Assembly: GCA_038087875.1 (NCBI GenBank)
Contig: CM075988.1
Coordinates: 14,820,001-14,884,000 of the forward strand
Length of the DNA stretch: 64,000 nt
Direction of reading: 5' to 3'
Source: Malacoraja senta
Lineage: Eukaryota
The first letter of the stretch is position 1. Every line of letters starts with the position of its first letter. Below the pieces are notes generated by a model. It searched no databases and was not told where the DNA came from. It saw nothing but the letters and a program-made list of their open reading frames with translations. A program made the translations under genes and the position numbers. Positions 16,520-22,640 of this stretch are shown piece after piece.

Positions 16520-16833
16520 TGTAGAAATAGGGAACCGCAGATGCTGGTTTATAAAAATAGATGCAAAGTGCTAGAGTAACTCATCGGGTCAGGTAGCGTC
16601 TCTGGATAGGTGACATTTCAGGTCGAGACTCTTCTTCAGATTGATTGTGGTGTTGGGGGGTGGGGTGGACAATGCTGGAAGAGAGGAGGGGCAGGACAGA
16701 GCTGAGCAATAAATGGGTTGATACAGGTGAGGGGGAACTTTTGGTAGGCAGATGGTTGAACAAAGGTCAGAGATGAAAAGACAGAAGGTATGAGACAAAA
16801 TAATTGAAGAAATGGTTCAACATCACCTATCCA
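16520..16833 (-). mobile_element. Penelope pLTR-derived element with a degenerate hammerhead motif
   Basis: TSD tgtaataatta (16509-16519 and 16834-16844). Reverse strand reads ctgaagaagagtctcgacctgaaatgtc. Confidence 0.75.
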
Positions 16834-16929
16834 TGTAATAATTACATTCTTGTCCAAACTTCCATTGCTTGTATGGTGTCCCTAACAATATCCTGCTCAC
16901 CCATCTTAGCTTATTGCGTGAAAAATATA

Positions 16930-17385
16930 CGTCTTCTAGATGGGCTGGGACGCATCCTCAGTGATGTGATCTGGGGTCATCGGGTGTTTCGGGTCTCACA
17001 ACATCAGACACCCTCGCCCAGGCGACCCAGCCGGGGTTGACCAGGCTGGGACTTGCATCCCAGCAGCAACCGCCCATGGATCAGCCATCTTAATAATTAC
17101 TCTGCAGGGGTTGGGAGACTCTAGTGCGTGGAGGGACTGGCCTCTGTGGGGTGAGTCCTGGCCGGGCTCCTCCTGCGTCCCACCAGGTTCAAGGCCTGTG
17201 CGCTGCACCTCTTTCTCCCTCTCTGAGCATCTCATTCTCATCTGATGGATTTTTAGGCCATGGTGGTTCATTAGGCCTTTCCGTAGCTTTATTGGGTGTC
17301 TTTCTAATGAAAGACACAGACTGGGGAGCTAACCCAGCCTGTCCCGGGTGCCGTCTTTCCGTGCCGTCAACTGTATCTCCAGTAG
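16930..17385 (-). mobile_element. Internally deleted Hero-like (RLE-clade) non-LTR retrotransposon
   Basis: An N-terminal peptide (HGLKIHQMRMRC...VQRTG..PGGTQEEPG..SPHR.QSLH) is fused directly to a C-terminal peptide (IKMADPWAVAAG) and a 3'UTR, both recognised from memory as Hero-like. No RT is present. Confidence 0.7.
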
Positions 17386-17409
17386 ATCCACTTTAATCTT
17401 TAAAAAACA

Positions 17410-19170: not shown

Positions 19171-22100
19171 TCTATATAACTAAAAGTCTCATCCTGACCA
19201 CTTCCTATCTGTGCTGTATATTGATTTAAGAAAAAACGCTACCGTATATAGCTATGACTTTTGGCCATCTTACTCACAGTCCTCCTCCGCTGAGGCAGCC
19301 CTGAGGATTTTTCTGATCGATGAAAAATAAAAAAAATAATTAGTGTTTAAAAAATCTTTAGATCAGCTGATTGGTCCTCTCGCCTGTCAATCACCATGAT
19401 GAAGATAACGCCCCTTCCGGGGAGACAAGACTATAAAACCCCGGATGCCTGGACGTGAGTCATTCACTCTGGAAGATTGCGAGGGAGGGGCTACAGCTGT
19501 GATTCTGCTGTGAGTCAACTGAACTGTGAGTCTACTAAACTGTGAGTCTGCAATGTACTTGCAATAAATGATTTGTTAGCCCTTAATGAAAATGAGATGA
19601 GTTGTTTGGCCTGCCCTGTGCCTGAAACTGAAATGACAATGGAAATGAAATGAAATGAAAATGAGATGAGTTGTTTGGCCTGCAATGTGCCTGAAACTGA
19701 AATGGCAATGGAAACTAAATGAAATGGAAATGAGATGAGTTGTTTGGCCTGCCCTGTGCTTGAAACTGAAATGGCAATGGAAATGAAATGAAATGAAAAT
19801 GAGATCAGTTGTTTGGCCTGCCCTGTGCTTGAAACTGAAATGGCAATGGAAATGAAATGAAATGAAAATGAGATGAGGTGCGTGAAACTGAAATGGCAAT
19901 GGAAATGAAATGAAATGAAAATGAGATGAGTTGTTTGGCCTGCCTAGTGCTTGAAACTGAAATGGCAAAGGAAATGAAATGAAATGAAAATGAGATCAGT
20001 TGTTTGGCCTGCCCTGTGCTTGAAACTGAAATGGCAATGGAAATGAAATTAAATGAAAATTAGATGACTTGTTTGGCCTGCCCTGTGCCTGAAACTGAAA
20101 TGGCAATGGAAATGAAATGAAATGAAAATGAGATGAGATATTTGGCCTGCCCTGACCTTGAAACTGAAATGGCAATGGCAATGGAAATGAAATGAAATGA
20201 AAATGAGATGAGTTGTTCGGCCTGCCCTGTGCTTGAAACTGAAATGGCAATGGCAATGGAAATGAAATGAAATGAAAATGAGATGAGTTGTTTGGCCTGC
20301 CCTATGCTTGAAACTGAAATGTAAATGGAAATGAAATGAAAATGAGATGAGTTATTTGGCCTGCCCTGTGCTTGAAACTGAAATGGCAATGGAAATGAAA
20401 TGAAATGAAAATGAGATGAGTTGTTTGGCCTGCCCTGTGCTTGAAACTGAAATGGCAATGGAATCGAAATGAAATGAAAATGAGATGAGTTGTTCGGCCT
20501 GCCCTGTGCTTGAAACTGAAATGGCAATGGAAATGAAATGAAATGAAAATGAGATGAGTTGTTTGGCCTGCCCTGTGCTTGAAACTGAAATGCCAATGGA
20601 AATGAAATGAAATGAAAATGAGATGAGATATTTGGCCTGCCCTGAGCTTGAAACTGAAATGGCAATCGAAATGAAATGAAAATGAGATGAGTTGTTCGGC
20701 CTGCCCTATGCTTGAAACTGAAATGGCAATGGAGATGAGTTGTTTGGCCTGCCCTGTGCTTGAAACTGAAATGGCAATGGAATCGAAATGAAATGAAAAT
20801 GAGATGAGTTGTTCGGCCTGCCCTGTGCTTGAAACTGAAATGGCAATCGAAATGAAATGAAAATGAGATGAGTTGTTTGGCCTGCCCTAGGCTTGAAACT
20901 GAAATGGAAATGGAAATGAAATGAAATGAAAATGAGATGAGTTATTTGGCCTGCCCTGTGCTTGAAACTGAAATTGCAATGGAAATGAAATGAAATGAAA
21001 ATGAGATGAGTTGTTTGGCCTGCCCTGTGCTTGAAACTGAAATGGCAATGGAAATGAAATGAAATGAAAATGAGATGTTTGGCCTGCCCAGTGCTTGAAA
21101 CTGGAATGGCAATGGAAATGAAATGAAATGAAAATGAGATTAGTTGTTTGGCCTGCCCTGTGCTTGAAACTGAAATGGCAATGGAAATGAAATGGAATGA
21201 AAATGAGATAAGTTGTTTGGCCTACCCTGTGCTTGAAAGTGAAATGGCAATGGAAATGAAATGAAATGAAAATGAGATGAGTTGTTTGGCCTGCCCTGTG
21301 CTTGAAACTGAAATGGCAATAGCAATGGAAATGAAATGAAATGAAATGAAAATGAGATGAGTTGTTTGGCCGGCCCTGTGCCTGAAACTGAAATGGAAAT
21401 GGAAATGAAATGAAATGAAAATGAGATGAGTTGTTTGGCCTGCCCTGTGCTTGAAACTGAAATGGCAATTGAAATGAAATGAAAATGAGATGAGTTGTTC
21501 GGCCTGCCCTGTGCTTGAAACTGAAATGGCAATGGAAATGAAATGAAATGAAAATGAGATGAGTTGTTTGGCCTGCCCTGTGCTTGAAACTGAAATTGCA
21601 ATGGAAATGAAATGAAATGAAAATGAGATGAGTTGTTTGGCCTGCCCTGTGCTTGAAACTGAAATGGCAATGGAAATGAAATGAAATGAAAATGAGATGT
21701 TTGGCCTGCCCTGTGCTTGAAACTGGAATGGCAATGGAAATGAAATGAAATGAAAATGAGATTAGTTGTTTGGCCTGCCCTGTGCTTGAAACTGAAATGG
21801 CAATGGAAATGAAATGGAATGAAAATGAGATAAGTTGTTTGGCCTACCCTGTGCTTGAAAGTGAAATGGCAATGGAAATGAAATGAAATGAAAATGAGAT
21901 GAGTTGTTTGGCCTGCCCTGTGCTTGAAACTGAAATGGCAATGGCAATGGAAATGAAATGAAATGAAATGAAAATGAGATGAGTTGTTTGGCCGGCCCTG
22001 TGCCTGAAACTGAAATGGAAATGGAAATGAAATGAAATGAAAATGAGATGAGTTGTTTGGCCTGCCCTGTGCTTGAAACTGAAATGGCAATTGAAATGAA

Positions 22101-22640
22101 ATGAAAATGAGATGAGTTGTTCGGCCTGCCCTGTGCTTGAAACTGAAATGGCAATGGAAATGAAATGAAATGAAAATGAGATGAGTTGTTTGGCCTGCCC
22201 TGTGCTTGAAACTGAAATGTCAATGGAAATGAAATGAAATGAAAATGAGATGAGTTGTTTGGCCTGCCCTGTGCTTGAAACTGAAATGGCAATGGAAATG
22301 AAATGGAATGAAAATGAGATGTTTGGCCTACCCTGTGCTTGAAAGTGAAATGGCAAAGGCAATGGAAATGAAATGAAATTAATTGTTAGGCCTGCCTGAA
22401 ACCACTAATTTCGGCCTACAAGGCCCCTATTAGACAAGAAACCAGTCCCTTTTGCCAAAAAAGGCCCCTATTAGCCCAGGAAGAGCATTTTAGCCCAAAA
22501 GACCCATGCCAGACCAGGAAAAGTCCAGAAGTGCCTTTCACTGAGATTTCACAGATTTTTTTTAAAGTCCTTTTAGCCCATCAGGCCTATACTAGCCCAG
22601 GAGGAGTCCCTTTGGCCCATCAGTGTATACCCCCTGCAAG
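19171..22640 (+). mobile_element. Non-autonomous Helitron with satellite array, 3' end missing
   Basis: A|TCTATATAACTAAAAGT 5' end. About 400 bp are homologous to the complete Helitron at 61169. No hairpin-CTAG end is found. Confidence 0.75.
19587..22378. repeat. About 69-bp satellite, roughly 40 monomers
   Basis: Unit gaaaatgagatgagttgtttggcctgccctgtgcttgaaactgaaatggcaatggaaatgaaatgaaat; this explains the 23-aa period in the spurious ORFs. Confidence 0.97.

Follow-up and report, generated by a model that had tools for sequence, protein, structure and literature searches.

Can a hammerhead ribozyme whose conserved blocks stand in a non-canonical order reside at the 3' end of a chromosomal retrotransposon, and how would such an end still be copied if the RNA cut itself? 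The question is raised by positions 17013-16949, minus strand, of a stretch of 64,000 nt from Malacoraja senta (GCA_038087875.1, CM075988.1:14,820,001-14,884,000, forward strand; genome of 1.94 Gb). The whole of this stretch is called the window below. On direct reading, the segment holds hammerhead-like blocks in the order UH > GAAA > CUGAnGA. The block letters listed in an original prediction for this locus were the same on re-reading, as were helices III and I of 6 bp each without mismatch and a helix II with four of five positions paired, the exception in the window copy being a C.C mispair at 10.2/11.2. That prediction was also right that the order is no circular permutation of hammerhead types I-III. 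The best explanation, and in our judgement a somewhat probable one, is a type-SGC hammerhead module in the 3' ends of long interspersed nuclear elements (LINEs), with predicted self-cleavage.

The type-SGC order has been described before. In the available part of the paper by Eckert, Friedrich, Weinberg & Weinberg (NAR 2023; PMC10085705), the hammerhead is divided into blocks S (cleavage site), G (GAAA) and C (CUGAnGA), and a natural, non-circularly permuted "type SGC" is presented in which the stem I side is linked to the stem II side, typically by three bases. Five sequences were cut in vitro at the predicted site, and cleavage was abolished when the conserved G of CUGA was mutated. Stems I-III and a fourth stem were confirmed by disruptive and compensatory changes, the fourth stem was required for cleavage of SGC-3, and the ribozymes act in cis. 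An extra U between CUGAUGA and stem II can be seen in the oligonucleotide table. The RNAMotif descriptor allows a stem III of 4-7 bp, UH, a stem I of 4-7 bp, 0-8 nt, a stem II of 2-6 bp, CGAAA, 0-15 nt and CUGAUGAUG. According to Supplementary Note 1 of that paper, every rearranged hammerhead reported there came from assembled metatranscriptomes, with replicons unknown. The pseudoknotted, non-canonical topology of the original prediction, in which a short linker joins the tips of helices I and II, has thus held, and its supposed novelty has not: the S>G>C topology is already known, and what is new is its setting in chromosomal retrotransposon 3' ends. In the literature searched, the term "type-SGC" appeared in no paper other than PMC10085705, and there was no report of a hammerhead in a LINE 3' untranslated region (UTR) or of type SGC in a genome. 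The available part of a paper of November 2026 credits alternative permutations only to PMC10085705 and to one work on a fungal virus-viroid hybrid.

The module was placed in the window by direct reading and by two alignments, A1 (18 sequences of four families, F1 to F4) and the wider A2 (16 sequences). Its parts and the element copy that carries it are as follows.

16917-17391, minus strand: copy of a family F1 element, truncated at the 5' end (~475 bp of a ~535-bp family; 5' limit approximate), with the common 3' end ...TTTTTCACA.
17054-17064, minus strand: 5' strand of closing helix P0, GCUGGGAUGCA; partner 16954-16944.
17032-17050, minus strand: hairpin A, loop CCUGGUCAA (family form YCUGAUCAA); 5' arm mutated in the window copy; pair 39-53 is AU/UA/GC.
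17017-17023, minus strand: 5' strand GCCUGGG of the extension helix beyond stem III.
17014-17016, minus strand: CGA, the non-bulged side of a kink-turn-like loop; GA invariant.
17008-17013, minus strand: stem III 5' strand GGGUGU (16.6-16.1).
17007, minus strand: C17, with the predicted scissile bond at 17007/17006 by analogy with the type-SGC cleavage site; H17 is A in F2.
17001-17006, minus strand: stem I 5' strand UGAUGU.
16996-17000, minus strand: 5-nt linker UGUGA joining the tips of stems I and II (family forms UGUGA/UGAAA/UAAAA).
16991-16995, minus strand: stem II 5' strand GACCC (11.5-11.1), from direct reading and A1.
16988-16990, minus strand: G12 A13 A14 (GAA), present in four families with letters forced by the search anchor.
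16982-16987, minus strand: stem III 3' strand ACACCC, from direct reading and A1.
16976-16981, minus strand: GAUGAC, the 3-nt bulge and the GA of the kink-turn-like loop; U, G and A invariant.
16969-16975, minus strand: 3' strand of the extension helix, CCCAGAU, with one mispair in the window copy.
16962-16967, minus strand: stem I 3' strand ACAUCA, from direct reading and A1.
16955-16961, minus strand: CUGAGGA core (C3-A9, N7 = G), from direct reading.
16944-16954, minus strand: 3' strand of P0, made of the extra U (16954), the stem II 3' strand GCGUC (16953-16949) and CCAGC, from A1 and A2.
16917-16942, minus strand: tail, with a small hairpin (family form CAUCU-AGA-AGAUG, weakened here) followed by UAUAUUUUUCAC(G), the family 3' end.

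The connector between the 3' strands of stems III and I has 14 nt in the window copy (16981-16968).

Our own scanner was built from the published descriptor and relaxed so that N7 was free, the U could be present or absent and stem II could hold one mispair. In the window, searched on both strands, it returned one locus only, the candidate itself, and it gave zero matches in 10 Mb of random sequence. By our own arithmetic, with positions taken as independent and identically distributed, an equally good match is expected about 1e-11 times per position, 1e-6 times per window and 0.04 times per genome. The pattern CGAAACACCC-N10-30-CTGANGATG was found 1357 times in the genome (665 + 692), against 0 for the reversed pattern used as control, and the matches are spread over four diverged families with different connectors. 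A hand tally over 100 listed matches assigned 14 to F1, 55 to F2, 16 to F3 and 15 to F4. The family forms are given below.

F1 (L002): site GUC; stem I UGAUGU/ACAUCA; N7 G; linker UGUGA.
F4 (L057): site GUC; stem I UGAUGU/ACAUCA; N7 U; linker UGAAA.
F2 (L041): site GUA; stem I UAGUGU/ACACUA; N7 U; linker UAAAA.
F3 (L048): site GUC; stem I UUGUG/CACAA; N7 A; linker UAAAA.

CUGA-GA and GAAA are retained in all four families, with the letters other than N7 forced by the anchor, and H17 is never G at the family level (C in F1, F3 and F4; A in F2). The original prediction had expected homologues to show an invariant core, a free N7, an H17 without G and covarying helices, and the four families agree with it for the core (its letters being partly anchor-forced), N7, H17 and helix I.

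High pairing was observed in A1 for the extension helix and stems III, I and II taken together: 91.1% of cells are paired, against 83.3% in shuffled alignments (0/500 reach the observed value) and 31-42% in slid ones. Stem I has 93.5% of its cells paired, and two of its six pairs are changed on both sides (39-81, GC/UA/AU, and the next, 40-80, AU/GC). The extension helix, in which 7 bp join the bases upstream of stem III with the connector, shows such changes at six of seven pairs, and the stem I 3' strand region begins 1-2 nt past it. A15.1-U16.1 (pair 36-57) is UA in 17 of the 18 sequences, and G10.1-C11.1 is present in all 18. Between stem III and the extension lies an asymmetric loop in which, throughout the 18 sequences, an invariant xGA faces RRU-GA. 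A kink-turn consists of a three-base bulge with G.A and A.G pairs on its 3' side and a canonical helix on its 5' side (as given in the available parts of PMC4316175 and PMC5061560). The bulged strand ACACCC-RRU-GA and the opposite strand xGA-GGGUGU match this definition by sequence. In hairpin A, all four families have the loop YCUGAUCAA (window 17037-17045; A2 columns 42-50), above a stem that covaries (GC/UA/AU). The module is a real, selected, structured RNA of ~150 nt, pseudoknotted and conserved, and at least four retroelement families have it at their 3' end. Its unpaired conserved bases are explained by two motifs, the kink-turn and the hammerhead core, and it is therefore filed here as a type-SGC variant in a new host. 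To judge from its letters, it carries a complete hammerhead catalytic core in type-SGC order.

The candidate was compared with type SGC (the HRIMA-1 motif and its variants) as described in the available part of PMC10085705. Both have the S>G>C order, two crossing pseudoknots, a short linker between stems I and II and the extra U between CUGAnGA and G10.1, and the candidate fits all length rules of the descriptor, with gaps of 5 and 14 nt where 0-8 and 0-15 are allowed. It differs in its place in a cellular genome, at retrotransposon 3' ends, the published ones being metatranscriptomic, and in a linker of 5 nt instead of typically 3. It is without a stem closing block C, and has the kink-turn and the stem III extension instead; its closing helix competes with stem II. 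The published ribozymes have been shown to cleave; for the candidate, cleavage is a prediction. The strict descriptor (CUGAUGAUG, contiguous stem II) does not accept the module: F1 has N7 = G where U is fixed, and none of the four families fits at the stem II pair that directly follows G10.1, because 10.2 is unpaired in stem II as a mispair or a bulge. At the gathering score, neither the window nor loci L041, L049, L057 and L016 gave a match in Rfam 15, and around the site no hammerhead appeared even at E<=10. For the site this null result is expected, since the Rfam models do not cover the S>G>C order, and the case shows why type-SGC-like motifs escape both descriptor and Rfam searches. A canonical hammerhead using the same CUGAGGA was rejected by eye, the next hairpin not being followed by GAAA.

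The element that carries the module was identified through F2. Among the 55 F2 matches listed, 11 same-strand pairs ~3.9 kb apart were found, and at L041 an open reading frame (ORF) of 1181 aa is flanked by two motif copies. Its only Pfam match is RVT_1 (E = 3.4e-23). R2 retrotransposon proteins are its best solved relatives (E ~2e-24), with R2 and L1 nearest, and C-terminal CCHC and RPD...E.T.PWE (PD..E-type nuclease) motifs can be recognized by eye. No GIY-YIG domain was detected in this ORF in Pfam at E<=0.01. A Penelope-like element, suspected from the partial upstream copies described below, was ruled out by the RVT_1/R2 likeness and the lack of GIY-YIG, and the partner is probably an R2-superfamily LINE. 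In tblastn searches with the F2 ORF, the F3 locus L049 has the ORF C-terminus at 56% identity, and several F4 loci have C-termini at 37-44% identity. In two other F3 loci, all that is present of the ORF is an N-terminal piece, and these are therefore non-autonomous. As the C-terminal protein parts are 37-56% identical where the ORF is present, the module has thus been kept over deeply diverged LINE families. On this protein and sequence likeness, it is assigned to the 3' end of R2-superfamily LINEs (reverse transcriptase and restriction-like endonuclease) and of their short non-autonomous derivatives.

A number of results weigh against a working hammerhead, and they are gathered in this paragraph and the next. 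The two search anchors fixed the letters of CUGAnGA (except N7) and GAAA, so that core conservation is partly forced. Stem III (95.4% paired) is invariant, so no covariation information comes from it. In stem II, 10.2/11.2 never form a standard pair (0/18), and the changes are one-sided only (GC->GU and AU->GU), with no both-sided change; covarying helices, as originally predicted, are thus found for stem I and not for stems II and III. The stem II strands do stay complementary in all families through these one-sided changes, and in F2 and F3 a one-base deletion converts the mispair to a bulged U. Closing helix P0 is a different matter. It has up to 11 bp, in which bases ~90 nt upstream pair with a run made up of the extra U, the 3' strand of stem II and the bases that follow, and six of the 11 pairs show both-sided changes in A2. 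Within it, 10.2 (AU/GC) and 10.5 (GC/AU) covary in Watson-Crick fashion, so that P0 takes in the whole 3' strand of stem II, with G10.1, as well as the extra U. P0 and stem II are mutually exclusive, and P0 is the stronger. The minimum-free-energy fold of a near-typical copy contains P0; in the window copy, a mutated arm of hairpin A leads to another fold. Every truly covarying helix (P0, hairpin A, the extension and stem I) is compatible with a closed fold from which stem II is absent. Against this stands the 5' strand of stem II, which is unpaired in such a fold and yet conserved, and which is complementary to the 3' strand in all families. No counterpart of the published fourth stem was found, the best being a 4-bp GAUG/CAUC with large loops in F1, which F4 does not keep. 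Its place could be taken by the outer half of P0, stacked on stem II.

If cut RNAs were copied to their 5' end, element copies would begin at U1.1. In F1 and F4 together, 13 copies have a non-C before U1.1, against 20 at a neighbouring control position, and in F2 the same test gave 0 against 2; no excess was seen. With a core-free anchor, which covers F1 and F4 only, 33 of 65 module copies were intact in both core blocks (hand tally), and in the rest, point changes or deletions are scattered. The core mutations A13G or A13U recur in small groups of copies, which may have arisen by local duplication or from source elements that were already mutated; the latter would argue that catalysis is unnecessary for copying. 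In the regions C1:63.6-64.9 Mb and C1:119-124.5 Mb and at L028, CGGAAC occurs at four places and CGUAAC with GCUUCC at two; L028 also has GCUUCC. Sequences from public runs were available as assembled contigs; 24 runs carry the element, one of them recorded as RNA and most only guessed to be RNA. Four runs from four other organisms were compared with the element, low or absent cover over parts of it being not informative. Among the rows listed, no change appears in CUGAGGA or GAA; there is one C17>A, which is an allowed H, the linker is variable, and one variant has UAAAC. Run X2 contains two further contig variants, one with G10.1>A and one with an altered stem II 5' strand. According to the available part of PMC11167929, the hammerhead of a Penelope element works with the help of a protein, is dispensable for insertion in vitro and gives rise to no ends in RNA-seq. 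By analogy, it may serve as a precedent for a protein-assisted, trace-free hammerhead.

How the two competing helices could serve one element is suggested by a model that we put forward only tentatively: an ancient, kink-turn-assisted, switch-controlled permuted hammerhead in the 3' UTR of R2-like LINEs, with helix P0 or a protein toggling between template and self-cut RNA. The kink-turn would fold the stem III hairpin back. The loop of this hairpin (stem I strand, linker, stem II strand and GAAA) would then pair with the strand leaving the hairpin base (stem I strand, CUGAnGA and stem II strand). The SAM-I riboswitch has a similar architecture, a hairpin with a kink-turn whose end loop pairs to a strand near its base, and this pseudoknot is reportedly kink-turn-dependent. 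The module would resemble it in the kink-turn-broken hairpin with an end loop pairing near its own base, although SAM-I is a riboswitch and not a ribozyme. The RNA would exist in two states. In the closed state, the 3' strand of stem II would be bound up in the 11-bp P0; in the active state, P0 would be open over its inner half, stem II would form and the cut would fall after C17, at 17007|17006. The closed state would leave the 3' end whole for target-primed reverse transcription and so would answer the puzzle of 3' end copying. Cleavage may be attenuated, co-transcriptional or protein-assisted, and its candidate roles are the processing of co-transcripts or the parting of translated RNA from template RNA.

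The alternative that survives best is possible, though we are inclined to doubt it. Here the closing helix, two hairpins, the kink-turn and one pseudoknot form a non-catalytic 3' UTR fold that is a recognition site for the reverse transcriptase, with no self-cut. On this reading the hammerhead-like core would either be left over from an ancestral ribozyme or be retained because its bases make protein or tertiary contacts. All covarying helices can be accommodated in a single closed fold that lacks stem II, P0 accounts for the variation at 10.2 and 10.5 better than stem II does, and the copies of F1, F4 and F2 show no cleavage-defined 5' ends. R2 proteins are known to bind pseudoknotted 3' UTR RNA (available part of PMC12222951). 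It speaks against such a fold that the hammerhead core bases are all correctly placed relative to stems I and III, with a match probability of ~1e-11 per position by our arithmetic, that the sole varying core positions are N7 and H17, both free in hammerheads, and that the stem II 5' strand remains conserved and complementary while unpaired. A dimeric or trans-acting hammerhead made from two RNAs, like the minimal type I of Penelope-like elements, was also considered in the original prediction, and we think it very improbable. The UGAUCA in the hairpin A loop of all four families is palindromic, so two RNAs could pair loop to loop in a kissing contact, and a partial copy of the element's own 3' end often precedes full-length copies; however, the three blocks lie within 65 nt on one strand, the 5-nt linker and the kink-turn permit a plausible one-molecule fold, and the published type-SGC ribozymes are cis-acting (PMC10085705), so a second RNA is not needed. 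Chance resemblance in a single decayed repeat copy is excluded by the pattern counts and by conservation and covariation over four families, even though CTGANGA alone is not enriched in the window (49 against a shuffle mean of 40) and there is no Rfam match.

The R2 superfamily is already associated with a self-cleaving RNA, since a hepatitis delta virus (HDV)-like ribozyme is reportedly present at the 5' end of R2 and other LINEs. It shares the LINE superfamily with the candidate hammerhead and differs in ribozyme class and in its position at the 5' end. Its cleavage sets the 5' end of the element, whereas in F1, F4 and F2 no such starts are seen at the predicted cut. Hammerheads in a repeated retroelement terminus are described for Penelope-like elements and animal retrozymes (available parts of PMC4209133, PMC7229834, PMC11167929 and bioRxiv 10.64898/2026.07.22.740005). 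There, too, a partial copy of the element's own 3' end precedes full-length copies and the role of cleavage in transposition is unclear. Unlike the candidate, these are canonical type I, often minimal and dimeric; for animal retrozymes the available part of bioRxiv 10.64898/2026.07.22.740005 describes type I motifs only. Their hosts have a GIY-YIG endonuclease, and the partner of the candidate is an R2-like LINE.

If the hammerhead reading is true, the module would be the first non-circularly permuted ribozyme in a cellular genome and the first of any class at the 3' end of a LINE, and it would be a natural ribozyme that needs a kink-turn to fold. The type-SGC topology would now be found in a chromosome, in abundant and partly young retrotransposons, with four natural variants and ready compensatory changes. 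This opens to test the folding of a knotted hammerhead, in which a kink-turn may stand in for the fourth stem and stem II may have a rival helix, a second ribozyme class in R2-superfamily LINEs, and the role of a ribozyme inside the RNA end that the reverse transcriptase copies.

The window copy itself belongs to a GC-rich block of ~475 bp (~16917-17391) within AT-rich surroundings, with the motif at its 3' end. The F1 repeat gave 1224 first-look candidates in the genome, of which the 40 best copies are 92-95% identical; the copies have ...CAUCUAGAAGAUGUAUAUUUUUCACA as their common 3' end and differ in where they begin at the 5' side. The original prediction had placed the motif in a Hero-like 3' UTR. 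A setting in the 3' UTR of LINEs with a restriction-like endonuclease (R2 superfamily) is supported for the module, and not for the copy at hand: its 110-aa ORF is accidental, because stop codons interrupt all but three of 150 matches in the genome (147). The element in the window is dead, truncated at its 5' end, non-coding and non-autonomous; it belongs to the ~535-bp family F1 and is not a LINE. The 5' part of the family is reached in 11 of 30 F1 loci, and all 11 are preceded by ~11-148 nt of the element's own 3' end. As active ribozymes, these upstream partial copies were dismissed, only one of the 11 in F1 being long enough and unbroken. The upstream partial copy at L041 includes the P0 5' strand. 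About one third of 30 F1 copies (L001-L030; window ~17381-17391) begin within a few bases of …GACUACU|GGAGAGACAG, and this clustering suggests a preferred RNA 5' end or a reverse transcription stop. In the same copies, the nominal first base is never the start unless a 3'-tail piece stands in front.

Several observations were made on the other families and organisms. Elements of F2, the autonomous family (L041-L045), end in a C-tract of 8 to >20 C, sometimes interrupted. At L041 this tract directly abuts the start of the next unit, and the upstream partial copy includes at least 620 nt of the ORF end. In contigs from public runs, the F1 family and its tail-to-head junction were also found in four other organisms. 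The last ~170 nt of the element are 5-50x deeper than the rest in runs X1, X2, X4 and X15 (L016:1790-1964), which fits a 3' module common to several families in other species. A sister family with the stem II strand CCCCC, suggested by a contig variant in run X2, is absent from the genome (3 matches against 26 for the control). A search for families whose stem III has a different base at 15.2 yielded 14 matches, all of them single-base decay of the known four.

Two further features of the window were noted. On the minus strand at 16600-16640, CUGAAGA-AGAGUCUCGACCU-GAAAUGUCAC resembles a decayed minimal type I hammerhead, and a better-kept copy (…GUCUCGACCCGAAACGUCACC) flanks L028. The stretch contains CUGAnGA, a hairpin, GAAAC and GUC with the palindrome ACGU, and is of a kind that we take to be that of the type I hammerheads of Penelope-like elements; Rfam gave no match to it at E<=10. 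At 19500-22400, ~2.9 kb of tandem repeats with strong G>C skew leave all three minus-strand frames open, with repeated peptide-like units.

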